A DNA stretch of 54,229 bases from Abditibacteriaceae bacterium (GTDB lineage Bacteria > Armatimonadota > Abditibacteriia > Abditibacteriales > Abditibacteriaceae): NCBI GenBank assembly GCA_031425655.1, contig JANPJS010000069.1:1-54229 (forward strand), given 5' to 3'. The position numbers were made by a program, and so were the translations under genes. The notes under the pieces were generated by a model. It made no database searches and had not been told where the DNA came from. It was given only the letters and a program-made list of their open reading frames with translations. Below, piece by piece: positions 684 to 52,640 of the stretch (position 1 is the stretch's first letter; every line of letters begins with the position of its first letter).

Positions 684-733
684 AAAACGCAAAAGAGGGG
701 CGCAGATTGCTCTGCGCCCCTCTTTTGCGTTTT
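684..733. terminator. Bidirectional intrinsic terminator between convergent genes
   Basis: Perfect 23-bp inverted repeat AAAACGCAAAAGAGGGGCGCAGA / TTGC loop / TCTGCGCCCCTCTTTTGCGTTTT, with A/T tails on both sides. Confidence 0.85.
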
Positions 734-3563
734 AGCGTTGCGCCATCTTTTTGAGGCGTTCCAACTCGCGCAGCAAGTCTTCTTTGCCGGACTTAGGCAC
801 GATGGCACGAATATGACTGTTCAAACGCGCCCGATCTTCATCGGTGATGTCTTTGGCCGAAAAGATTAAAATGGGGATTTCGCGCGCTGCGGGATGCTCG
901 CGCAGGCGTTGCACCACATCGAAACCGGTCAGGCCGGGCATCATTAAATCGAGAATAATGGCGTCCGGCAGATGTTCTTCGGCCAATGCGACGCCGTCTT
1001 CGCCGCTCAATGCCTGCAAAATCTTGTAGCCTTGCTGTCGCAAAATATCGCTGAGCATTTCTACGGTTTGCGCTTCGTCGTCCACGATTAAAATTGTGCC
1101 CGCTTCCTCGCCGTGCGGCGTGATGGCTTTGCGCACCGCGTCCAGCAAACGCTCTTTTTGAATCGGTTTAACCAGAAAATCCACCGCGCCTAAGCTGAAA
1201 CCCAGTTGTTGATCGTCGGTGATGGAAACAATAACGACCGGCACGTCGGCGGTGGCCGGCGCCGCTTTGAGTTCGGCCAAAACTTGCCAGCCGTCCTTGT
1301 TCGGCAACATGATGTCGAGTGTCACGGCGTCAAAATGCAACTCGCGCACGCGCTGCAAGGCTTGTTCGCCATCGAAGGCGCGCTCGACGCGATAGCCGGA
1401 TTCGGTTAAATAATGCGCCAATAAATCGCTGGCGGGCAGATTGTCTTCGACGACCAGAACCGTCAGCGGCGCGACGCCGTTTTCGGGCGTGCCGTTTGGC
1501 GATTCGCTGGTGGCTTCGGGCGCGTTTTGGGAAGGCTCGGCTGCGAGGAGCGCGGAAGGCCCGCCGGGCAATACGAAAAAGAATGTGCTGCCTTTGCCTT
1601 CCACTCCTTGACTTTCGACCCAGATGCGCCCGCCGTGCATTTCGACCAGACGCCGCGTCAAAGCCAAGCCCAAACCTGTGCCCTGCTGCTGGCGCGAATA
1701 CGACGAATCCACCTGCTCGAATTCGGCGAAAATGCGCTCCTGATCTTCGGCTTTGATGCCGACGCCGGTATCGGAAACCGCGATGCAAACCGGCACAATA
1801 GCTTGGCCGTTGGAGGCGTCGGGTGCCACCGTGCCGGACAGCGCCGTCACGGTCACAACGCCGCCGTTGGGCGTGAATTTGATGGCGTTGGAGAGCAGGT
1901 TATACATAATCTGCTTGAATTTCGGCGCGTCCGCCGTCGCGGGCGGACAATCGGGCGCAACTTCGACTTTCAACTCGATATTCTTCTTGGCGGCCAATGT
2001 TTTGACGATATTGACCACGTCTTGCAGCGCCGAACTGACCGGGAACGTGACGTAGTCCAACTCCATTTTGCCGGCTTCGACTTTGGACAAATCGAGAATA
2101 TCGTTGATGAGTTGTAAAAGGTGGCGCCCGCTGGTCAGCACGTTAGAAATGTATTTGCCCTGACGCGGATTAAGCTCGCCAAAAGTCTGGTCTTCGAGAA
2201 TTTCCGAAAAGCCAATGATGGCGTTTAAGGGCGTGCGAAGCTCGTGGCTCATGTTCGCCAGAAACTCGCTTTTGGCGCGGCTGGCGGCCTCGGCGGCGTC
2301 TTTGGCCAGATGCAATTCGACGTTGGAACGCGCCAATTCCTGCGCTTGGCGCGCCAGAGCTTCTTCGGACTGCTTGCGTTCGGTGATGTCTTCGGAGATG
2401 CCCAGCAGGTATTGAGGCTTGCCCGTGGCGTCGTAAATCGGCATCTTTTTGGTGTGCAAAATACGCACGCCATGCTCGGTTTGAACGGGTTCTTCGGGAA
2501 TATCCAGCAGCTTGCCGCTTTCGAGCACGGAGCGGTCGGCGGCTGTAAAAAACGCGGCTTCTTCGGCAGGAAAAAGGTCGCCGTCGTTTTTGCCGATCAT
2601 GTGCTTGCGCGGAATGCCGATGAGGTCTTCTTCGGCTTTGTTCAAGCTCACAAAGCGCAGTTGCTCGGCGTCTTTCACGAAAATCATGTTCGGGATATTT
2701 TCGACGATGGACGTAAGAAAGGTTTGCACGCCGCGCATCGCTTCTTCGACGCGCAAACGCTCGTTGATTTCGGTTTCAAGCTCGATATTGGCGCCCGAAA
2801 GCTCTTCGGTGCGTTGCTGCACGCGCTGTTCGAGCGTGTCGTTGAGAGCGCGTAACTCAATATCGCGCTCTTGAATTTGCGACAACATCGCGTTGAAGGT
2901 ATCAATCAGCTCGCCGATTTCGTCCTGACCTGTTTTAACGGCGCGCACTGAATAATCTTTGTCTTCGCTGACGGCGTGCGCCACGCCCGCCAATTCGACA
3001 ATCGGATTGGAAATGAAGCGCTGAAATCCCGACGAAAGCACCAGCGTCAGCATTAAAAGCCCCACGATGACCGTTCCCACGATGCCGATGTAATTCATCA
3101 AATGCGTGCGAACGCCTTGCATATCGTAGCGCAAACAAACGGTGCCCACTGTTTTGCCGCGCTCTTTAATCGCGCGGAATACGTTCAAATAATCGCCCTG
3201 AATGCGTTCGCCTTCGGCTTCGGCGCGGGCCGGAAGCGTCACGCTTTTCAGGTCGGAGCGCAGATATTGCGTGAAAAGTTTGCCGTCTGCCTCGTAGATG
3301 CCGGCGGCGGCGATGTCGGGCCGGGCTTTGAGCGCCGCGAGGTTTTTCTGCGCCACCTCGGCATCGTCGAAATCCAGCGCGGCTGTGCTTTGCGCGCCGA
3401 TAATCTGCGCCAGCGAAGCCAGATTTTCCGTTTCGCGTTGCTGAAAAGTATTGCGCTCGTAAACCACGATAGCCGTGCCCGCCAGCAGCAATCCCAAGCT
3501 GCTGACCAGCATGATGACCAAAAGGAGTTTGCGGCGTATCGGGAAATCACGAAATGAGCGCAT
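732..3563 (-). CDS. Hybrid sensor histidine kinase (TM-CHASE8-like-TM-HAMP-PAS-HisKA-HATPase-REC-REC)
   Basis: 943 aa. Two TM helices, HAMP ([11 protein letters not shown]), PAS (IFVKD...EDITERK), H-box [12 protein letters not shown] boxes ([22 protein letters not shown]), two receiver domains with intact Asp (LDIMLP, LDLMMP). Confidence 0.93.
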
Positions 3564-9880: not shown

Positions 9881-9902
9881 GCTATCGGGTGGCTGTTTAA
9901 TA

Positions 9903-10017
9903 GGACGCGGGCTTCGCACACGGAGCTTCGCTGCGCGGATTTTCGCTGTTCACTTCCAATCCAAAGAAAATCAGCGTAAACCCGCGCAGCGAAGCTCCGT
10001 GTGCGAAGCCCGCGTCC
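9903..10017. repeat. Palindromic intergenic repeat (family A) with perfect 36-bp arms
   Basis: GGACGCGGGCTTCGCACACGGAGCTTCGCTGCGCGG (9903-9938) and its exact reverse complement (9982-10017). Confidence 0.92.
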
Positions 10018-10020
10018 CAT

Positions 10021-10908
10021 TCAAAGCCCTGAGGCTTCCTCGACCAGATTTTCCATGCCGGAGGCCAAATCGCGGCGCGCCAGCAAATCGCAGATTTCGG
10101 CTAAAACTTCGGCGCGGTCTTTTCCGCTCAGCGACAGCGCGAGTTGTGCGATGAGCAGGCCGTAATTGGCATCCAAAGCGTAGCGGCGGCCTTGCACCTG
10201 CAAGGCTAAATAACGCTCGCGGCGTCCTAATTCATCTAAAATCGGCGAAAGCTGCAGACGGTCTTGTGGCCCGCTTTGCGCGATGCGCTGCTGCAAAAGT
10301 TCCATCACGGTCGGGGTTAAAACGTGCATTCCGAAAAAGCACAGATAATGCCCGGCGCGCAGGCCCGGCACCATTAAAGATTGCTCGGCGGCGGTCGGTG
10401 TGGGCTTTTCGATGACTCTTTCGACTTCATAGAGATCACTCGTGCTTTTGACGCGCTGTCCGCCAACGGCGCCGAAATACGGTAACAAATGCTCGCGCGT
10501 CGGCTGCACGCCCGAAAGGGCGCAATCGTGATTTTGCGCGGCGACCACAAGCTGCTGCGCGCAGCCGGCGCCCATATCGCTGATGTAAATATGGTCGCCA
10601 ACCATGTGCAAAAACGCTTCGTCGCCGGTCCATTCGCGGGCGCAGAAAAGCGCGTGGCCGTAGCCAAGCGGCTGCTCTTGTGCCACGAACTGCAAACTGC
10701 CGGCATCTGGCCCCGCCGCCTGACGATAGGCGGTTTCGTCTCCGGCGCAGACCACCACGCATATCTCCTGCACACCGGCGCCTAAGGCTTCTTCGATGAT
10801 GATCTTGAGGACGGATTTCTGGCGCCCGTCGCGGTCAACTAAAGTTTGCAGCGGCAGAGTGCGCTGAAAACGCGACGCCGCCGTAATCACAGCTTTGGTG
10901 ATTTTCAT
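10021..10908 (-). CDS. GalU-like sugar-phosphate nucleotidyltransferase family protein (degenerate active-site signature)
   Basis: 295 aa. [21 protein letters not shown] motifs. The canonical GxGTR is replaced by SRFQR. Confidence 0.8.
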
Positions 10909-10936: not shown

Positions 10937-11076
10937 TTGAATGGAACACGGAGCTTCGCTACGCGGAAACGGCACGGATTTGCGCAGTTTTTTCTTTAAA
11001 TTGAACTGCGGAAATCCGCGCATGAAATCGGGGCACCCGCTTGCGGGCAGGATAGCGAAGCTCCGTGCTCCATTCA
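10937..11076. repeat. Palindromic intergenic repeat (family A) with nested stems
   Basis: 24-bp outer arms TGAATGGAACACGGAGCTTCGCTA (10938-10961) / 11053-11076 (1 mismatch). Inner 15-bp arms CGGATTTGCGCAGTT / AACTGCGGAAATCCG. Confidence 0.9.
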
Positions 11077-11088
11077 GCATTCCTTATC

Positions 11089-16653: not shown

Positions 16654-19344
16654 ATGACTCGTTCCAATCCCGTTTACCTCACGATGCTCCGCAATGTGGT
16701 GCGCTTGACGAGTGCCGCCGTTATCACGGTCGCCGCTCTGGTGCTTTTGGGCTGGGTGCTGCATAACGAAACTCTCAAGCGCATCGTGCCGGGCATCGTG
16801 GCCATGAATCCGGTGACGGCGCTCAATTTCATCATGGCGGCGGTCGCTCTACGCTTGTTGGAAGCGCCAACGGACGGCGCGGCGAAAACGGACGGCGCGG
16901 CGAACGCGGCGCAGCGCAGCATGGCGCAACGCAGCGTGGCGCGCATTTTGGCGTCGTGCGTGGCCTTAATTGGACTGCTTTGCTTCGGCGCGATTCTTTT
17001 GCAGCGGCCCGGTATAGACCAATGGCTTTTTCACGATCAGTTGGGTATCGGCTCCACGATTCCCAACCGCATGGCGCCCAATACCGCCATGAATTTCATC
17101 TTCATCGGCCTCTCGCTTTTGCTGATTGATGTCGAAACCCGCAAAGGCGCGCGGCCTTCGCAATTTGTGGCGCTGGCGGTCGCGCTCATCGCTTTGTTAG
17201 CCGCCATTGGTTATCTTTACGGCGCCGTTTCGTTTTATCAGGTCGGAAAAACCTATATTCCGATGGCCGTGCATACCGCCACGAATTTCCTGATGCTGGC
17301 GACGGGAATTCTCTGCGCCCGCCCGGATAAAGGACTGGCGGCGCGCTTCACCAGCGACGGCGCCGGCGGCATCATGGTGCGGCGGATGCTGATTTTCATC
17401 ATCGGCATCCCGATTACGTTGGGCGGCCTGATTATCACTTTGCAAAAGGCCGAGCTTTACGATCCGACCTTTCGTTTTGCGGTTTATGTGGTGCTGATCA
17501 TGGTGTTTTTCTCGATCATGGTCTGGAACAACGCCACTTCGCTCGACCGCAAGGAAAGCGAGCGTGACCGCGCCGAGGAAGCCTTGCGTCGCGCGCACGA
17601 TGAACTGGAAACGCGCGTGCAGGAGCGCACGGCGGAACTGGCAACCGCCAACACTTCGCTTGTAGCCGAAGTTAAGGAGCGCCAGCGCGCCGAAGTGGAA
17701 TTACAGCAGGCGCACGACCAATTGGAAGTGCGCGTGCAGCAGCGCACGGCAGAACTGGCGACGGCCAACGATTCCCTACAAAGCGAAATCGTCGAGCGCA
17801 AACGCGCCGAAGAGCAAGCCCAGCAAGCGCGCCAACTCGCCGAAACCGCAACGCAAGTCAAAAGCGAATTTTTGGCGAACATGAGCCACGAATTGCGCAC
17901 ACCTTTGAACGCCATCATCGGATTTTCGGAGATTTTAGAAGACCAGACTTTCGGCGAACTTAACCCGCGCCAGACCAAATACGTGTCGAACGTGCTGACC
18001 AGCGGACGCCATTTGTTGCAGCTTATCAACGATATTCTCGATCTGGCCAAAATCGAAGCGGGCCGCCTCGATTTGGACGCGCAGCCGTTTGCTGTCAGCA
18101 GCGCCTTGCAGGATGTCGCTACTATCGTGAAAACGCTGGCGAACAAGAAAAACGTGCAGTTGCACGTCGAAACGCCGTCGGAGCTGCCGGCATTGACCGC
18201 CGATCAGCCGAAATTCAAGCAAATTCTCTACAATTTGCTTTCCAACGCCATCAAATTCACGCCCGAAGGCGGCACCGTCATTCTTAAAGCCGAAATAGAA
18301 AGCGGGGCGTTGATGCGTATCGCCGTGTCCGATACCGGCATCGGCATCAAAGCCGAGGATCAAGAGCGCGTTTTCGGCGAATTCGAGCAGGTGGATTCTT
18401 CGTATGGCCGCCAGCAGCAGGGCACCGGATTAGGGCTGGCCTTAACCAAGCGTCTGGTGGAATTGCACGGCGGGCGCATCTGGGTGGAAAGCGAGGGCAT
18501 CGAAGGCAAAGGCTCAACTTTTGTTTTCACGCTGCCGGTGGACGGCCCGGCGGCACAGTCGCAATTGCCTGAAGCCTTATATTACGGCGCGATAGCAGAT
18601 TCCGAGTCGCGGCCTTTGGTTCTCATCGTCGAGGACAACGCGCAGGCCAGCGAGTTATTGACCCTTTATTTGGCGGATTCGGGCTATCGCATTGCGTGCG
18701 CTTACGACGGCGCGCAAGCCTTGCAAATGGCCGACGAACTCAAGCCCGATGTCATTACTTTAGATGTCATGCTGCCGCAAAAAGACGGCTGGGAAGTGCT
18801 GGCCACGCTCAAATCGGCCTCAGCCACCCAAAACGTGCCGATTATCATGGTTTCCATGACCGAAGATCGCCAATTAGCCTTCAGTTTGGGCGCCATCGGC
18901 TTTCTCACCAAGCCTGTGGACAAAAACCAACTCACGCAAGCAGTCGGCAAAGCCATAGTCGGGAAATCGGCGCCGACGGTGCTGGTGGTAGACGATGAAT
19001 CCACAACGGTCGAAATGCTCGGCGACGTGCTGCGCCATCAGGGTTGTCGGGTGTTGCAGGCTTCGGGTGGCCAGCAAGCAATTGATTTAGCTATCGCGCA
19101 TCTTCCCGATGTGATGGTGCTTGATTTGATGATGCCGGACGTGACCGGCTTCGACGTAGTGCGCCAGTTGCGTGAGCATCCCCAGGCCAAAGAAATTCCG
19201 ATTCTCGTCTTCACCGCCAAAGACATCACCGACGAAGATCGTCAGCGTTTGAATAACGGAATTCAATCCATTATCGGCAAAGGCGGCAAAGAAGAATTGA
19301 TGAGCGCCTTAGCCGCGCTGTCTTTAACCAAACGCGACGTGTAG
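16654..19344 (+). CDS. Hybrid sensor histidine kinase with multi-TM sensor (HisKA-HATPase-REC-REC)
   Basis: 896 aa. About 8 hydrophobic segments (MNPVTA, RMAPNTA, MAVHTA repeats), duplicated coiled-coil linker, [10 protein letters not shown], two REC domains. Confidence 0.93.
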   Translation: MTRSNPVYLTMLRNVVRLTSAAVITVAALVLLGWVLHNETLKRIVPGIVAMNPVTALNFIMAAVALRLLEAPTDGAAKTDGAANAAQRSMAQRSVARILASCVALIGLLCFGAILLQRPGIDQWLFHDQLGIGSTIPNRMAPNTAMNFIFIGLSLLLIDVETRKGARPSQFVALAVALIALLAAIGYLYGAVSFYQVGKTYIPMAVHTATNFLMLATGILCARPDKGLAARFTSDGAGGIMVRRMLIFIIGIPITLGGLIITLQKAELYDPTFRFAVYVVLIMVFFSIMVWNNATSLDRKESERDRAEEALRRAHDELETRVQERTAELATANTSLVAEVKERQRAEVELQQAHDQLEVRVQQRTAELATANDSLQSEIVERKRAEEQAQQARQLAETATQVKSEFLANMSHELRTPLNAIIGFSEILEDQTFGELNPRQTKYVSNVLTSGRHLLQLINDILDLAKIEAGRLDLDAQPFAVSSALQDVATIVKTLANKKNVQLHVETPSELPALTADQPKFKQILYNLLSNAIKFTPEGGTVILKAEIESGALMRIAVSDTGIGIKAEDQERVFGEFEQVDSSYGRQQQGTGLGLALTKRLVELHGGRIWVESEGIEGKGSTFVFTLPVDGPAAQSQLPEALYYGAIADSESRPLVLIVEDNAQASELLTLYLADSGYRIACAYDGAQALQMADELKPDVITLDVMLPQKDGWEVLATLKSASATQNVPIIMVSMTEDRQLAFSLGAIGFLTKPVDKNQLTQAVGKAIVGKSAPTVLVVDDESTTVEMLGDVLRHQGCRVLQASGGQQAIDLAIAHLPDVMVLDLMMPDVTGFDVVRQLREHPQAKEIPILVFTAKDITDEDRQRLNNGIQSIIGKGGKEELMSALAALSLTKRDV

Positions 19345-21834: not shown

Positions 21835-24165
21835 TTGCTTTATGCTCAACATTGTGTCAAGCCCCAAGCAAAACCGATAACGAACGACGAAGGTTTAACC
21901 ATTGTGAAGTTGACAATCCGCTCCAAACAGTCGGGAGAAGCGCGCCCGGCATTCTCCCCATTCTCCCGCCTCGGCACCTCCTTGATCGTGAGCCTCGTGA
22001 TGATGACACAAATCTTCACGGGCATTGACGTAGTTTTCGCTCAAAATACCAACCCCTCGCGCGCATCGCAGGAAGAAGTTTTGGCCCCCGACGATGTTCT
22101 GGGCATCACCGTTTTGGATCATCCGGAATTCAGCGTTGATAATGTCACCGTCGGCTCCGACGGCAAGATTCAGTTGCCTTTAACCGGAAGCATTTTCGTG
22201 GCGAAAAAGACGCTGCGTCAAGTCACCGAAGCTGTGCGTAAGGCGCTTTTGAGAGAATTGCGCGATCCTCAGGTCACCGTCACTTTAAAACTGGCGCATC
22301 CGCGTCGTGTTTTCGTGCTGGGCGCTGTGGTGAAGCCGGGCATCTATGAAATCAAGCCGGGCTGGCGCATCACCGAAATCATCGCGGCGGCGGGCGGCTT
22401 GGCCGTACGTCCCGAACTGGCCGAAGCCGCTTTCACTCGTGGACAACAAGCGCCCAAGTCGCTTGACATCGCTCGTATTTTAGCCGTCGGCAGTGATCCC
22501 TCGAATGTCCTGCTCAAAGAAGACGACGTGGTGCGCATTTCTTCGCGCACTGTGCAAGTCAATGTCGCGGGGCAGGTTAAAAATCCGGGCAGTTACGATT
22601 TGCCCATCGGCAACGGCGTCGTCGAGGCTATCGCCATAGCGGGCGGGCCGACAGAACGTGCCGCGAAAACGCAAATCACGGTTAAGCATTTGGACGGCAC
22701 AGTCCAAGCCGTTGACTTGGCCAAGCTGATGGCACCGGGCAACGCGGCCCTCAACTTCGCTTTGAAAGCCGGCGATCTGGTTATGCTGCCGGAATCGCGG
22801 GCGCACGTCACGGTGCGCGGCGCCGTTCTCAAACCGGGCTACGTGGACATTCCCGACGGCGAAGTTTTGCGCGCCACCGAAGCCATCGCTTTAGCCGGAG
22901 GCGCCACAACTCAGGCCGCGCTTTCCAAAGCCAGCGTGACTCGGCAGGACGGCACGGTTATTCCCGTTGATCTTTTCAAAGCTCTGGTGCGCGGCGAAGC
23001 GGGGCAAAATCCGCAGCTTCAAGATGGCGATGTCGTTGTGCTGCCGGAATCGCGCACGCACGTTACGATTCGCGGTCTGGTGACGAAGCCGGGCTACGTG
23101 GACATTCCCGATGGCGAAGTTTTGCGCGCCACCGAAGCCATTGCTTTAGCCGGCGGCGCCCTGCCTTTGGCTGCACTTTCCAAAGCCACGATAACGCGTC
23201 TGGACGGCACGGTTACGCCCATTGATCTTTATAAAGCTCTGGTGCTGGGCGACAAAAACAGCAATGTGGTGTTGACGGCAGACGATGTGATAGACATTCC
23301 CAAATCTATCGGCATTACGGTTTTAGGCAATGTGGCCAAGCCCGGCACTTATACCGTTGAGGCCGGCACGGCCCTTCTCTCCGACATATTGGCTTTAGCC
23401 GGCGGGTTGAACATTAAGCCCGAAGACGCGCGCATCAATGTTTCCCGCACGCTGGCGACGGGCAAGCAGATCATCTTAAATCCGGTCGCGCTGTCGTTAG
23501 TCAATGCGCGCGATTCGTCGCAGAATGCGGTTATCATGGATGGCGATTTGGTCACGGTAACGTCTGCGGAATCGAAGAAAGTCATTATCAGCGGTCAGGT
23601 GCAACGTCCCGGAGAGTATGAACTGAACGAAGGCGACAGCGTGCCCGAATTGATCGCGCGTGCCGGCGGCCCGACGCTGGCCGCAGCTTTATCGCGGATT
23701 TCGGTCACTCCGCTCGGTGGCACATCGCAAACCGTGGACGCTTATCAAGCCGTGCAAACCGGGCAAAAATTGAATTTCCCTCTTGGTAAAGGCGATTTCG
23801 TCGTCGTGCCGGAAAATAAGCGCACCGTGGTTATTTTAGGCGCCGTGAACAAAGCGGGCGCGATTCTCATCCCGGAAAAAGAGACTTTAACGCTGGCCAC
23901 GGCTTTAGGTTTGGCGGGGGGGCCTCAAAAGGAAGCCGCAGTCAAGGAAATTGGGATTTTTCGTAAAGACCCAACTTCGCCGACAGGCCAATCGGAGAAA
24001 CCGCTGATTGTGTCGCTGCAGCAAAAGAAAGGCGGCCCGTCGGCTTTAAATATGCCGATTGAAGAGGGTTCGGTTATTTATGTGCCCGAAGGCAAGCAAT
24101 CCTCAACGATTTGGAGCAAAATTAGCTCGCTGGCTTCGGCGGCGTTAGCTCTCACCCGTTTTTGA
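21835..24165 (+). CDS. wza: Polysaccharide export protein (Poly_export + seven SLBB-like repeats)
   Basis: LAPDDVLGITV..V..DGKIQLPL.G.I export domain followed by 7 'V.V.G.V.KPG.Y...AGG' units. True start may be downstream of TTG 21835. Confidence 0.88.
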   Translation: MLYAQHCVKPQAKPITNDEGLTIVKLTIRSKQSGEARPAFSPFSRLGTSLIVSLVMMTQIFTGIDVVFAQNTNPSRASQEEVLAPDDVLGITVLDHPEFSVDNVTVGSDGKIQLPLTGSIFVAKKTLRQVTEAVRKALLRELRDPQVTVTLKLAHPRRVFVLGAVVKPGIYEIKPGWRITEIIAAAGGLAVRPELAEAAFTRGQQAPKSLDIARILAVGSDPSNVLLKEDDVVRISSRTVQVNVAGQVKNPGSYDLPIGNGVVEAIAIAGGPTERAAKTQITVKHLDGTVQAVDLAKLMAPGNAALNFALKAGDLVMLPESRAHVTVRGAVLKPGYVDIPDGEVLRATEAIALAGGATTQAALSKASVTRQDGTVIPVDLFKALVRGEAGQNPQLQDGDVVVLPESRTHVTIRGLVTKPGYVDIPDGEVLRATEAIALAGGALPLAALSKATITRLDGTVTPIDLYKALVLGDKNSNVVLTADDVIDIPKSIGITVLGNVAKPGTYTVEAGTALLSDILALAGGLNIKPEDARINVSRTLATGKQIILNPVALSLVNARDSSQNAVIMDGDLVTVTSAESKKVIISGQVQRPGEYELNEGDSVPELIARAGGPTLAAALSRISVTPLGGTSQTVDAYQAVQTGQKLNFPLGKGDFVVVPENKRTVVILGAVNKAGAILIPEKETLTLATALGLAGGPQKEAAVKEIGIFRKDPTSPTGQSEKPLIVSLQQKKGGPSALNMPIEEGSVIYVPEGKQSSTIWSKISSLASAALALTRF

Positions 24166-30933: not shown

Positions 30934-31203
30934 TGTAGGGGCGCAATATATTGCGCCCTCCCTGGCGTTTTCGAGCGCATGACAAGGGCGCAACAGGTTG
31001 CGCCCCATAGGCATCAAGCTAAGGCATCGTCCACTCGCTCCCCCGATTGAAATCGGGGGCTACGGCTACGAAGTCCGCCTTCGCGGACTCGAAACTTAGT
31101 CCGCGCAGGCGGACTTTGTAAGAATAGCGCCCCATTTTAATGGGGTGAGCACAGGCGAAATTCTTAAGTTGATGCCTATGGGCGCAACAGGTTGCGCCCC
31201 TAC
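30934..31203. repeat. GTAG-type REP doublet (REPIN) whose right REP is split by an inserted cassette
   Basis: GTAGGGGCGCAATATATTGCGCCC at 30935-30958. Inverted partner GGGCGCAACAGGTTGCGCCCC(TAC) occurs twice, at 30986-31006 and 31180-31203. Confidence 0.88.
31007..31179. mobile_element. MITE-like cassette, copy 1
   Basis: Terminal inverted repeats ATAGGCATCAAGCTAAG / CTTAAGTTGATGCCTAT, flanked by a 21-bp direct repeat. Near-identical inverted copy at 34364-34526. Confidence 0.8.
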
Positions 31204-31223
31204 TTGAATTGGAGTTTTTTCCC

Positions 31224-33152
31224 ATGTGTGGGATTTGTGGAATCGTCCGACTGAATACTTCATCCAGCCCGCCCATTGAGCCGGCCACGCTGGATGCCAT
31301 GACCGATAGCATGAGCCATCGCGGCCCCGATGGGCGCGGAACCTGGCTTTCTCCCGAAGGCGCCGTCGGTTTGGGCCATCGCCGCCTTGCCATCGTGGAT
31401 TTATCGCCCTTAGGCGCGCAGCCGATGAGCAATGAAGACGGCACCGTTCAGGTGACGTTTAACGGCGAAATTTACAATCACGTCGCGCTGCGGCACGATT
31501 TGGAAAACAAAGGCCACCATTTTCGCTCGCGCTCCGATACCGAAGTGCTGGTTCATCTTTACGAAGAATACGGCGTCGGCATGATTGAAAAGTTGGATGG
31601 AGACTTCGGCTTTGGCTTGTGGGACGGGCGCAACAAGAAATTGCTGATGGCGCGCGACCGGGCGGGCGTGAAGCCGGTTTATTACACGCAGGTTGGCGGG
31701 CAGTTTTTGTTTTCTTCGGAAATTCGCGCGCTTCTGGCGCATCCTTTGGTCAAGCGCGAAGTAGACAAAGAATCGCTGTATCATTACCTGACTTACTTGG
31801 TCGTTCCCGCGCCGAAAACCTTAGTGCGCAACATTTACAAGCTGCCCGCCGCCGCTGCGCTGGTGCTTGATCTCAAAGCGGCGAATCCCGAACCCAAAGT
31901 CTGGCAATTCTGGGAAGCTTTGCCGGGTCAGGCGCAGTTGGAAGACGATTTGGACGCTCAACTGCGCGATCTTTTCGAGCGTTCGGTCGAAAAGCGATTG
32001 ATGAGCGATGTGCCGGTCGGCGTGCTGTTTTCGGGCGGCGTGGATTCCACTCTGAACGCGGTTTATTTTCAACAGCGTGCCGGGGCGCAGCGCATTCGCA
32101 CTTATCATGTGGGAATGCCGGGCGCCGCCAATTTGCAGGACGAAAGCGAAACCGCGCGGGCGATGGCGAAGCATCTGGGAACCGAGCATTACGAAATCGC
32201 CATTACGGAAAAAGACCTGCTCGGCAGCGTCGAATCGCTGGCCAAATTTCAAGATGAGCCGGTTTCCGATCCGGTTTGTCTGCCGCTTTATTTCATCACC
32301 AAGCACGCGCGCGAAACCGGCACGATTGTGTTGCACGCCGGAGAAGGCGCCGATGAAATCTTTTGCGGTTACAGCAACTATCGTCGTTTTCTGGCGCAGC
32401 ACGAATCGCACTGGAAGCCGATGCAACGCCTTCCCAAACCGGTGAGCCGTGTGGCGGCATCGGCGCTGGGCCGCTCATCGGCGCCGCAGCACCGCAAAAT
32501 GGCCGACGCCCTGCGCCGTTTGGCACTGGGACAAGAGTTTTTCATGTCTTCGGCGGTCGGTTATTACGAAGACGAGAAACAAAGCGTTTTATCGCGCGAT
32601 TTTCGCCGTGCTTCCGCCAATTTGGATTCGTTCGATGCCGTCGCGCCGTATTACAAACGCTTGTCGGAAACGCATCCCAACGCTTCGGTTCTGGAGAAAA
32701 TGACCTTCGTGGAGTTGCAGCTTCGCTTGCCGGAATTGCTGCTGATGCGCGTGGATAAGATGGCGATGGCCAACTCCGTCGAGGTGCGCGTGCCGTTTTT
32801 AGATAGAGATTTAGTAGACTTTGCCTTGTCCGTGCCCGAATCTTTCAAGCTGCGCGACGGCATTTCCAAAGAGCCGGTGAAGCGTTTGGCGGCGCAATTC
32901 GTGGATCGAGAAGCGATTTATAACCCAAAACGCGGCTTCGGCGTGCCGATTCAGGATTGGTTTCGCGGCGATTTGGGCGATCATTTGCGCGATATGTTGG
33001 ACGATTCGCAGATGCAGGCCGGCGAGTATTTCGATACGAAAATGCTGAAGCACAACCTCGATCACGGGCTGAAAAGCGTCAACCAAGCCTTTCAATTGTG
33101 GGTTGTTTACAACTTTCTGCACTGGCAGCAGCATCTCACGCAAACTTCATGA
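31224..33152 (+). CDS. asnB: Asparagine synthase-like glutamine amidotransferase (polysaccharide amidation type)
   Basis: N-terminal MCGICG, HRGPD, GHRRLAIVD, NGEIYN, SGGVDS, GEGADE, E.RVPFLD. RBS GGAG at 31211. Confidence 0.93.
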   Translation: MCGICGIVRLNTSSSPPIEPATLDAMTDSMSHRGPDGRGTWLSPEGAVGLGHRRLAIVDLSPLGAQPMSNEDGTVQVTFNGEIYNHVALRHDLENKGHHFRSRSDTEVLVHLYEEYGVGMIEKLDGDFGFGLWDGRNKKLLMARDRAGVKPVYYTQVGGQFLFSSEIRALLAHPLVKREVDKESLYHYLTYLVVPAPKTLVRNIYKLPAAAALVLDLKAANPEPKVWQFWEALPGQAQLEDDLDAQLRDLFERSVEKRLMSDVPVGVLFSGGVDSTLNAVYFQQRAGAQRIRTYHVGMPGAANLQDESETARAMAKHLGTEHYEIAITEKDLLGSVESLAKFQDEPVSDPVCLPLYFITKHARETGTIVLHAGEGADEIFCGYSNYRRFLAQHESHWKPMQRLPKPVSRVAASALGRSSAPQHRKMADALRRLALGQEFFMSSAVGYYEDEKQSVLSRDFRRASANLDSFDAVAPYYKRLSETHPNASVLEKMTFVELQLRLPELLLMRVDKMAMANSVEVRVPFLDRDLVDFALSVPESFKLRDGISKEPVKRLAAQFVDREAIYNPKRGFGVPIQDWFRGDLGDHLRDMLDDSQMQAGEYFDTKMLKHNLDHGLKSVNQAFQLWVVYNFLHWQQHLTQTS

Positions 33153-34237
33153 AGAATTCGCACTTATCTCCATCGGAATCGCTGGCTTTCAGGCAGCAGG
33201 AAGCCACTTCGATGCCCAAATCAACCACTCCGTCACAAAGCGGAAGCACCGTGGCGCCGCGCGATCAACTGATTTACATCGCCGGCAGCGGGCATTCCGG
33301 CTCCACGCTGCTTGATATGATGTTGGGCGGCCACAGCCAAATTTCAAGCTTGGGCGAAGTGCATCGCCTGACTATGAATGCCTGCGCCAAAACCGATTTC
33401 GAGCTGCATCGCTGCACTTGCGGTTTGACTGTCGAAGCATGTCCGTTCTGGCAAAAAGTAGCGACTGAGCTTCAAAAACTGCTTGGCGTTGACGACCCGG
33501 ATATTTTCAAAAAGCACTGGATTACCGAACGGCGCAATCTTCAGCTTGACGACAGTTGGGACGCCTGGGAGCCGGTCAGCACCGGGCGCAATTTGTTCCG
33601 CCCTCGACTGCTGAACGTCGCTACGGCTGCCGGCAACCGCGCGGTGTGGCGATTGCTGGCGAATTTCAACCGCGAAGTGCGCGAGTATCGCAAAATCATT
33701 CGCAACAGCCTTGATGTTTACGAAGCGGTGCGGCGCGCTCATCAAACTCCCATCGTGATTGACTCGACGAAAAACGCCACGCGCCTTCAAGGCTTTAACA
33801 TGGAATCCGCGCCCAATCTGCGGGTGCTTTTTATGCTGCGCGACGGGCGCGCCGTGTGTTACTCGCGGATGCGCCGCCAGGAAGTTTCGATGGAAGTCGC
33901 GGCGCGCGTGTGGAAAGCCGAGCATTTGAAACAGCGCCTCGTGCATCGAAACATGGATAAGAGTTCGTTCCTGCGCGCCACTTATGAAGATTTATGCCGC
34001 GCACCGGAAGCCGAATTGCAGCGCATTTGCGCATGGCTGGGCGTGGAGTTTCAACCTTCGATGTTGGATTTTCGCGCGGATCGGCACAATTTAGGCGGCA
34101 ACCCGATGCGAATGCGTAGTCAGGAACGCACGATTCAACTCGATGAAAAATGGCGCCGCGAACTCAGCAGCAAAGATTTGGAAGAATTCGACAAAGTCGC
34201 CGGAGACCTCAACCGTGATTTAGGCTACACCGCTTGA
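33149..34237 (+). CDS. PAPS-dependent sulfotransferase (copy 1)
   Basis: 5'-PSB YIAGSGHSGSTLL, DSTK, 3'-PB RDGRAVCYS, YEDLC..PE. ATGA overlap with the asnB stop. Confidence 0.88.
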   Translation: MKNSHLSPSESLAFRQQEATSMPKSTTPSQSGSTVAPRDQLIYIAGSGHSGSTLLDMMLGGHSQISSLGEVHRLTMNACAKTDFELHRCTCGLTVEACPFWQKVATELQKLLGVDDPDIFKKHWITERRNLQLDDSWDAWEPVSTGRNLFRPRLLNVATAAGNRAVWRLLANFNREVREYRKIIRNSLDVYEAVRRAHQTPIVIDSTKNATRLQGFNMESAPNLRVLFMLRDGRAVCYSRMRRQEVSMEVAARVWKAEHLKQRLVHRNMDKSSFLRATYEDLCRAPEAELQRICAWLGVEFQPSMLDFRADRHNLGGNPMRMRSQERTIQLDEKWRRELSSKDLEEFDKVAGDLNRDLGYTA

Positions 34238-34261
34238 GTAGAAAAGAGAGTTTTGCGGTGT

Positions 34262-34551
34262 TGTAGGGGCGCAATCTATTGCGCCCTCGTCATGCGTCCC
34301 CACACTTTTAGCACTAGGCGACACGTTACGGATCGCAGCGGAGGGCGCAATAGATTGCGCCCCATAGGCATCAACTTAAGGAATTTCGCCTGTGCTCACC
34401 CCATTAAAATGGGGCGCTATTCTTACAACGTCCGCCTGCGCGGACTAATTTTCGAGTCCGCGAAGGCGGACTTCGTAGCCGTAGCCCCCGATTTCAATCG
34501 GGGGAGCGAGTGGACTTGATGCCTAGGGGCGCAATAGATTGCGCCCCTACA
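34262..34551. repeat. GTAG-type REP doublet (REPIN) whose right REP is split by an inserted cassette
   Basis: TGTAGGGGCGCAATCTATTGCGCCCTC at 34262-34288. Partner GGGCGCAATAGATTGCGCCCC occurs twice, at 34343-34363 and 34527-34547 (+TACA). Confidence 0.88.
34364..34526. mobile_element. MITE-like cassette, copy 2 (inverted relative to copy 1)
   Basis: Begins ATAGGCATCAACTTAAG and ends TTGATGCCTA. The ~150-bp core equals the reverse complement of 31029-31180 with 2 substitutions and 1 indel. Confidence 0.8.
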
Positions 34552-41122: not shown

Positions 41123-41237
41123 AGCGCCGCGAATGGACGCTTCTTTGGTTGTTAGCTAAAGCCCCGTTGCCTATACTCGCTCACGCATTCGTTGGCCCGT
41201 AAATCGTTAGTGGAAGTCTGAAAAGTGGGCAGCGTGG

Positions 41238-41381
41238 CTCCTCTCCCCATTTGGGGAGACGGGCGCCCGTTGGGCAGGTGGTGAGGGGCGAACCGCGAAG
41301 CGGTTCCTAAAACCGGATGCTCAGAGCCGCTTGGCGGCTCACCCCTCACCCTAACCCTCTCCCCAAATGGGGAGAGGGGAC
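41238..41381. repeat. BoxC-like palindromic repeat (CCCTCACCCTAACCCTCTCCC type) with inner hairpins
   Basis: Right arm CCCCTCACCCTAACCCTCTCCCCAAATGGGGAGAGGGGAC (41342-41381) and interrupted complementary left arm (41238-41288). Inner stems GAACCGCGAAGCGGTTC and GAGCCGCTTGGCGGCTC. Confidence 0.8.
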
Positions 41382-41440
41382 TTTTAGACCGCTACTCAGG
41401 TTTCCCGGACGGTTTGGCCGCAATTTTACTTTTCCCTTTG

Positions 41441-51848: not shown

Positions 51849-52640
51849 TCAGCGGGTTGCGGTGCGGTAAAGCGAGCCGCTTTTCTCGATTGTCCACAGA
51901 AAGCCGTTCAAAGCCGTCATTTTGCTGGTGCCTTTCCAATCGCCGGATTTGCCGATTTTCTGGAACTCTCCATTTTTCTGTGTGCGATAAAGGTCGCCGC
52001 CGCGTTCGATTGACCACAGTTCGCCGTTCATTCCAGTCATCACCTGAGTGTTGATCCAGTCGCCGGTTTTGCCCACTTGTTTCCACGCGCCGGTTTTATC
52101 GGTGCGGTAAAGCGTGCCGGTTTTCTCTATAGTCCAGAGTTCGCCGTCTAACACCGTCAGAATTTGTGTGCCGCTCCAATCGCCCTTTTTCCCCACCTGT
52201 TTGTAATTGCCGGCTTTGTCGGTGCGATAAAGAGTGCCGTCTTTTTCGATACTCCACAAGTCGCCGCCCATGACCGTAATAAACGTGGTATTGGCCCAGC
52301 CGCCGTCGCCGACCTTCGTCCAGCCGCCACGCTTGGTGCGATACAGGTTATCGCCCGCGAGCGCCCAGAGCGCATCCTCAGCCGCCACAAACGCACGCAC
52401 GTCCTTCAAATTGCCAGCCGGCCCGACTTGCTCCCAGGCGCCCTTTTCAGTGGTCATGTAGAGCGTGCCGTCGCTTTCAACGCTCCATAACGCGCCCGCC
52501 GTGGCTGACAAGAACTTGGTTTCGACCCATTCGCCCGTTTTGCCGACCTGCTCCCACGCACCGGGAACAGCAAAAGCCGGCGACGCAACGCACGGAATCG
52601 CAGCCACAATCGTTGCGACAAGCAAATTCTTCCACTTCAT
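51849..52640 (-). CDS. Secreted six-repeat beta-propeller protein (lectin-like)
   Basis: Signal peptide ending AFA, then six 38-40 aa repeats G.W.QVGK.GDW..T......G.LW.IEK.G.LYRT. Confidence 0.8.
   Translation of the reverse strand: MKWKNLLVATIVAAIPCVASPAFAVPGAWEQVGKTGEWVETKFLSATAGALWSVESDGTLYMTTEKGAWEQVGPAGNLKDVRAFVAAEDALWALAGDNLYRTKRGGWTKVGDGGWANTTFITVMGGDLWSIEKDGTLYRTDKAGNYKQVGKKGDWSGTQILTVLDGELWTIEKTGTLYRTDKTGAWKQVGKTGDWINTQVMTGMNGELWSIERGGDLYRTQKNGEFQKIGKSGDWKGTSKMTALNGFLWTIEKSGSLYRTATR

Follow-up and report, generated by a model that had tools for sequence, protein, structure and literature searches.

Two short DNA cassettes in the genome of an Abditibacteriaceae bacterium each interrupt a repetitive extragenic palindrome (REP) and are flanked by direct repeats of about 20 bp. 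They lie on contig JANPJS010000069.1, a stretch of 54,229 nucleotides that we refer to as the window. Both are non-autonomous elements with ends of the type seen in the insertion sequence (IS) IS231, CATAGGCATCAACTTAAG. Very probably they are members, of the kind called MITE (for miniature inverted-repeat transposable element) or MIC (for mobile insertion cassette), of a broad, non-Bacillus, IS231-like radiation of the IS4 family, moved by an enzyme with a fixed stagger. Duplication length serves as a hallmark of transposon families and reflects how far apart the two active sites lie. The two loci comprise the following features:

30934–30960, + strand: left, unoccupied REP of doublet 1, GTAG-tagged
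30987–31005, + strand: left-hand member of the 19-bp target-site repeat at locus 1
31006–31180, no strand assigned: cassette 1, 175 bp, non-autonomous and IS231-like, both ends intact
31006–31023, + strand: left terminal inverted repeat of cassette 1, with 2 mismatches to the commonest form
31041–31148, no strand assigned: nested REPIN (inverted REP doublet) of a second family, in cassette 1
31163–31180, − strand: right terminal inverted repeat of cassette 1, fitting the IS231 signature CAT-N7-AA-N2-TAA
31181–31199, + strand: right-hand member of the 19-bp target-site repeat at locus 1; the REP tag (31200–31203) comes next
34262–34288, + strand: left, unoccupied REP of doublet 2, the 27-bp perfect partner of the restored right REP
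34344–34362, + strand: left-hand member of the target-site repeat at locus 2; 19 bp, or 20 if the damaged end lost one base
34363–34527, no strand assigned: cassette 2, 165 bp, in the orientation opposite to cassette 1, left end (34363–34380) intact
34396–34503 (limits approximate), no strand assigned: nested REPIN core, cassette 2
34515–34527, − strand: damaged right terminal repeat of cassette 2; ~13 outer bases remain and the TAA signature is deleted
34528–34546, + strand: right-hand member of the target-site repeat at locus 2; the REP tag (34547–34551) comes next

Both cassettes run CAT...ATG, and the terminal C and G belong to the element, not to the target. The signature CAT-------AA--TAA is matched at three of the four ends and deleted at the fourth, where cassette 2 is short by ~11–12 bp, a lesion unique in the genome. 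The left end of cassette 1 is identical to both ends of an autonomous element, L215 (L-numbers denote catalogued loci; G000 is the host genome, a 327-contig assembly whose contigs carry C-numbers; other G-numbers are other genomes). The cassettes have the properties of non-autonomous elements: they are short and transposase-free, are flanked by target duplications, occur in many copies and share their ends with L215, L040 and L050.

The original prediction described four 21-mers bordering the cassettes, the same within a locus and different between loci, and these are indeed present, as is the opposite orientation of the two insertions (135 bp at 99% complementarity). It also proposed that cassettes of ~165 bp duplicate a whole 21-bp hairpin. 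The repeats are real, but because the terminal C/G belongs to the element, the duplication measures 19 bp at locus 1 and either 19 or 20 bp at locus 2, where the right end of cassette 2 is damaged; with that C/G counted in, cassette 2 is 165 bp and cassette 1 is 175 bp. Similarly, nearly the whole REP is copied, but the duplicated stretch is one base short of the 20-bp palindrome, with an axis offset of 0.5. Removal of cassette 2 and one repeat copy restores, as predicted, a REP doublet with a perfect 27-bp outer inverted repeat; the same operation at locus 1 gives a 12-bp outer inverted repeat.

The host genome contains 63 such ends at ≤3 mismatches and 19 complete cassettes of 118–269 bp, which we call family A. 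Clean direct repeats flank seven of the 19 (15, 19, 19, 19, 20, 20 and 20 bp). Perfect direct repeats of at least 15 bp were seen in 6/19 complete elements, compared to 16/684 cross-locus pairings, in keeping with the claim that the flanks are true target-site duplications. The locus-1 19-mer has 18 copies in the genome and the locus-2 19-mer has six; locus 1 alone is therefore the weaker evidence.

We considered whether the flanks were mis-joined during assembly through a repeat longer than the reads. Such an artefact would fit the observations that no unitig of read run X1 covers a whole cassette and that short-read contigs of multicopy elements often have unrelated flanks. However, X1 unitigs with a unique flank cross all four junctions with no differing letters (depth 10.6–13.9; X1 is probably the source sample and hence not independent of the assembly). 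The excess of locus-matched over cross-locus repeats also argues against mis-joining, as does the same anatomy on multi-megabase contigs (G012, G456) and on a closed plasmid (L219), and we regard an artefact as extremely improbable. Runs X2, X4 and X5 gave only scattered low-depth pieces, uninformative for both window loci.

Duplication length and the folding of target sites

Searching 185,579 species genomes for the end sequences returned 105 stretches from many phyla, and our catalogue comprises 178 elements for which both ends and 30 bases of flank were available. Clean direct repeats were present in 71/178, measuring 10 bp in 15 elements and 19–21 bp in 52, with lengths of 15, 17, 18 and 22 bp seen once each. 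Autonomous elements show the same two classes: among the 26 with clean repeats, 21 have 19–21 bp and five have 10 bp. The prediction of an unusually long duplication is thus borne out (19–21 bp versus the 10–12 bp published for IS231).

A second family of small elements in the host genome serves as an internal control, with a shared host, the same kind of target and an ordinary duplication length. It has different IS4-type ends (72 ends, 17 paired) and targets another REP, and 7/17 pairs show a 10-bp duplication (loci G000:C28:7802–8245, C46, C114, C126, C196 and C314). Its autonomous form, L382:1500–2938, is 1439 bp long, and all three copies in G021 have 10-bp repeats.

Cutting at both feet of the target hairpin, as originally proposed, is not supported. 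At the 56 sites with long duplications, rebuilt palindromes span 10–69 bp and the duplication stays within 15–22 bp, with no significant correlation between the two (rho 0.21, p 0.12, n = 56). Duplication edges coincide with stem ends at only 8/56 sites and lie within one base of them at 17/56; at 18/56 the stem continues ≥4 bp past both edges, by up to 22–25 bp in Gemmataceae. Nine of the 56 targets fold weaker than −3 kcal/mol, two of them at 0.0, and perfect 20-bp duplications occur at sites that do not fold (G000:C106, L349, L329, L219). Contrary to the expectation that only hairpins are entered, the host genome has non-hairpin insertions, of which C106 and C182 are the clearer cases and C283 and C306 the weaker ones. 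Because the length is constant across palindrome spans and at poorly folding targets, the enzyme appears to measure about two helical turns between GG/CC edges.

Base identity at these edges is constrained. Across 112 half-sites (two edges at each of 56 sites), G is the base at 93% of cut positions +1 and at 88% of cut positions +2, and mirror pairing is seen at 48–51/56 sites for positions 1–2, dropping to 21–36/56 for positions 3–8. The target base differs from the element's C/G at 31/112 half-sites, and the element retains its C/G at 30 of these 31; one caveat here is that loci from the end-sequence scan were selected with a C before the end, inflating C at that position. Most simply, these data fit a stagger fixed at two turns on a symmetric GG...CC site of the kind that REPs supply.

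In a structure-directed alternative, a cruciform would be extruded, its two 5' feet attacked and the whole stem-loop duplicated, a route drawn as pathway b in PMC5678879. REP hairpins are indeed preferred targets, as predicted: 37.5% of insertion sites fold at ≤−7 kcal/mol, compared to 14% of 1,500 sampled GGG-N15..17-CCC sites, a background taken from the host genome only. Shape, or a longer symmetric sequence, may therefore contribute, which tells against a stagger that reads the GG...CC edges alone. The duplication is also centred on the palindrome axis at 34/44 sites with a scored stem, and 33/61 family-A ends in the host genome abut a hairpin of ≤−5 kcal/mol. On the other hand, 27/61 abut flanks weaker than −3 kcal/mol (a count that includes old, possibly spurious ends), and neither the constant length, nor the scarcity of edges at stem ends, nor the nine barely folding sites would be expected of cruciform attack. 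Hairpins are preferred targets, not required ones, and we consider structure-directed insertion unlikely.

Autonomous relatives and their transposase

Elements of 1.4–1.55 kb with cassette-type ends were found in several phyla and in the host's family. Three of the four proteins scanned (L040, L050 and L064) score 154–182 bits against the IS4 model NF033592, compared to a cut-off of 115; the fourth is an IS1634 transposase within a longer end pair. Catalytic residues D119, D191 and E325 are invariant in nine sequences from autonomous relatives, with spacings of 72 and 134, and the D-D-E triad is kept in 22/23 rows of the tree described below. The Y(2)R(3)E(6)K motif is present, Y318, R321, E325 and K332 being invariant. 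When a predicted model of the transposase (predicted local distance difference test score 66.5) was compared with known folds, the top five matches were all to Tn5 transposase (E 1e-10 to 2e-9), with no Cas1 among the matches listed; a sequence search of solved structures gave no hits. The enzyme is thus, as modelled, a conventional Tn5-fold transposase of the IS4 family with DDE and YREK motifs. An IS1182 identity was rejected, as the transposase open reading frames (ORFs) pass the IS4 model.

The transposase has at least 1,358 relatives, and in the host phylum 5/301 genomes carry one. Within the host's family, a 1475-bp copy interrupted by one internal stop is present in G012; its ends equal the left end of cassette 1, and its 20-bp duplication (2 mismatches) lies in a REP. 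Of the six small G012 copies that retain both ends, five are flanked by perfect 20-bp duplications, and in Poribacteria (G456) 4/5 autonomous copies have perfect 19–20-bp repeats. The original prediction invoked an IS4-type DDE transposase acting in trans, and same-ended autonomous elements do encode IS4 DDE/YREK enzymes; the autonomous form itself was not found in the host assembly but is present in G012.

To place enzymes of the two length classes, we used a 23-row transposase tree (its rows are those with a measured duplication, the other 58 being set aside; the 81-row tree is a quick version only). The Bacillales IS231 enzymes (10–11 bp) form one branch. The 10-bp enzyme of G429, a genome with perfect 10-bp repeats at 4/7 copies, pairs with a 19-bp enzyme (support 92/92) and has the catalytic spacing of the 20-bp group. 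One 10-bp enzyme, L225, lies amid 20-bp enzymes and next to the 20-bp enzyme L218, which offers a natural pair for comparison. The 10-bp relatives share 30–41% identity with the 20-bp group, and in the 23-row alignment we found no protein feature that splits the two classes, L225 having the same catalytic spacings as the 20-bp group. The 18 long-duplication rows lay on one side of a branch in 0% of 200 bootstrap trees, and a single origin of the long duplication was not rejected by the approximately unbiased (AU) test (p 0.06). Because the G429 enzyme groups with a 19-bp enzyme, and because four small elements (below) also make 10-bp duplications, these data are suggestive of more than one switch in duplication length.

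We infer a cut-and-paste route along the following lines. A Tn5-fold DDE transposase, supplied in trans in the host genome, would bind the 18-bp ends and, as in the rest of the family, excise the cassette. Each 3' end of the element would be joined to the target strand immediately 5' of GG, the two cuts being a fixed 19–21 bp apart, about two helical turns rather than the usual one, and gap repair would duplicate the stretch between them. The target would be read by its sequence, as a symmetric (G)GG...~16 bp...CC(C) site, and not by its shape. Since local REPs are intergenic 20–22-bp GG...CC palindromes, they would be the commonest landing sites, often duplicated nearly in full. Each such duplication leaves a target on either side of the element, so that tandem re-insertion becomes possible. 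Tandem elements with one 19–20-bp target copy between them, forming repeat-insert-repeat arrays, are found at G000:C228 (4971–5181), C302 (6741–6932), L038, L055, L291 and L327; the neighbours at C228 belong to different subfamilies, which points to re-insertion.

Besides the folding preference, several observations weigh against this reading. The remaining family-A cassettes have weak repeats (three), inverted flanks (four) or unrelated flanks (five), as do many elements of the whole catalogue (18 weak, 21 inverted, 68 with no repeats), and copies or sites from one genome are non-independent. Inverted flanks, seen at G000:C10, C42, C91 and C228:5007 and at L050, L134 and L327, some of them on long contigs, could reflect inverted-REP deletion, flipping of the target between element ends, template switching or mis-assembly. 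Empty alleles, which the original prediction proposed to look for in relatives, were not found for either window locus in the three congeners searched, where matches were short REP or weak coding hits. Nor was a cognate transposase found in the host assembly: the best tblastn match to IS231-like queries is 24–29% identical and lacks these ends, and none of seven inspected DDE_Tnp_1 matches, out of 10, has cassette ends. The gene may have been lost from this fragmentary assembly. Finally, small elements L073, L085, L086 and L122 have nearly the same ends and a 10-bp duplication, and therefore end sequence does not set the length. Chlamydiae cassettes with the same ends and a 10-bp duplication comprise L085, L086, L122 and the L072:358–2517 region; their transposase was not found in G454. 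One Chlamydiae end pair (L072:358–2517) encloses an IS1634-family transposase gene.

The nested REPIN and other repeats

The interior of the window cassettes, overlooked in the original prediction, is a passenger, in this case a REPIN belonging to another family. It consists of two tagged REPs in inverted arrangement, and its core has 72 loci in the genome: 30 adjoin family-A ends, and another 36 are free copies that do not lie at contig ends. REPINs of the interior family lie on both sides of a Y1 transposase gene (G000:C12:4652–5278; L033:1420–1869). NCBIfam names this gene as IS200/IS605 type; judged by its context, it is probably the REP-associated tyrosine transposase (RAYT) of the interior family. 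The C283 copy has a single REP where its sister C91 has the doublet. We regard the interior as a passenger because free REPIN copies exist and because the G012 cassettes have interiors unrelated to the host REPIN. The REPIN may have inserted into a cassette that was already there, or two ends may have captured it. Two repeat systems are nested here, a REPIN within a cassette and the cassette within another REP.

This nesting raises the possibility that a Y1 (RAYT-like) enzyme or recombination between repeats, and not a DDE enzyme, moved the cassette or made its flanks. The Y1 gene between interior-family REPINs fits such a scheme, and so do end modules that are shuffled among copies and the many copies with inverted or unrelated flanks. 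However, the 36 free REPIN copies lack family-A ends, and the same 19–21-bp duplication is made by REPIN-free autonomous IS4 elements and by the small G012 copies with their unrelated interiors. HUH enzymes are not known to make target duplications. We judge this scheme highly unlikely; recombination probably explains the odd flanks, not insertion itself.

A third end family (68 ends) also surrounds the REPIN core, at G000:C262:13043–13146, C226:16881–16986 and C160:14482–14686. Its 68 ends showed no pairing within 450 bp, and one element combines a third-family end with a second-family end.

Both window insertions are intergenic and lie inside a surface-polysaccharide-type gene cluster, locus 1 between an oxidoreductase gene and an asparagine-synthase-like gene, and locus 2 between a sulfotransferase gene and a Wzy_C-domain gene. 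No effect on the host is shown, and a promoter/terminator scan was near chance (1 versus 1.7; 10 versus 6.6 ± 2.7). Elsewhere in the window, another REP/REPIN family occurs at 3–44, 9896–10024 and 10937–11084 (19-base core, 87 genome matches at ≤2 mismatches), and a long REPIN-like inverted repeat, whose core has 17 genome matches, lies between two genes at 41212–41405. Long ORFs on opposite strands (732–3563 and 16654–19344) share several 108–241-bp blocks at 70–83% identity and are probably paralogues. Tandem repeats within coding regions are present at 22766–23252 (period 255 bp), 17535–17768 (117 bp) and 51952–52470 (120 bp).

Comparison with known systems

The present group resembles IS231 in its end signature, its DDE triad and YREK motif, its single ORF and its G-rich target edges. 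In carrying passenger DNA between conserved ends, the cassettes also resemble MIC231, the non-autonomous cassettes of IS231. In the IS4 family, the duplication spans about one helical turn (7–13 bp); IS231 itself has the end signature CAT-------AA--TAA (Table 1), direct repeats of 10–12 bp, identities often >50% and a distribution almost limited to the B. cereus group (PMC2266710). For IS231 we measured duplications of 10–11 bp, at L220, L415 and L416. By contrast, the present group duplicates 19–21 bp, spans many phyla and has transposases only 24–30% identical to IS231H, with a second D to E spacing of 130–137 (one 147) compared to 151 in IS231. The cassette ends differ from the IS231H end at 3/18 positions.

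Insertion sequences that target REPs are well documented (PMC1525189; PMC3184786). ISRm22, of the IS4Sa subgroup, inserts in REPs at the palindrome axis with a 6-bp duplication, and some copies lose their direct repeats via recombination (PMC1525189). The likeness extends to family, insertion at the REP axis and occasional loss of direct repeats; however, ISRm22 breaks the REP, whereas the present group copies it nearly whole and is not confined to REPs. Duplications of 19–26 bp at inverted-repeat targets are reported for IS1630, an IS30-family element of Mycoplasma fermentans (cited in PMC2853133 and PMC3317919). That element has a transposase of another family and a variable duplication length, whereas the length here is nearly fixed. 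Some IS1182-family members are reported to duplicate a whole stem-loop. In this family, which includes IS1272, targets are palindromic and whole-stem-loop duplication is a modelled route, and IS1272 deletes the stem-loop (PMC5678879). The present elements differ in family and ends, and their duplication is independent of stem length; length does not follow the hairpin, and not every target is an inverted repeat, as a hairpin-foot duplicator would have it.

The likeness to Cas1-Cas2 drawn in the original prediction holds for geometry only. As with Cas1-Cas2 and casposons, a long stagger copies a palindromic repeat and repeat-insert-repeat arrays can form; the fold here is that of Tn5, not Cas1, and there is no spacer capture, leader or polarity. 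Tentatively, and with considerable doubt, we suggest that widespread Tn5-fold transposases might space their cuts by either one helical turn or two while barely changing in protein size. The 20-bp setting would then be a REP-preserving, target-regenerating, array-building and convergent DDE route to a geometry like that of CRISPR, and would need a transpososome shape not yet seen. A two-turn group with the same fold and ends as its 10-bp relatives offers a handle on how DDE transposases set the stagger and bend the target.

In the literature searched, which took in few subscription journals and neither ISfinder nor Figure 3 or the supplements of PMC2266710, we found no published IS4/IS231 element with ~20-bp duplications; a named ISfinder member with a long direct repeat may exist. 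By enzyme and ends, the group belongs with the IS4 family, and by duplication length, identity and range it falls outside IS231. REP targeting, and long inverted-repeat duplications in other families, were already known; what appears to be new here is an IS4/IS231-like group that duplicates ~20 bp, twice the family norm.

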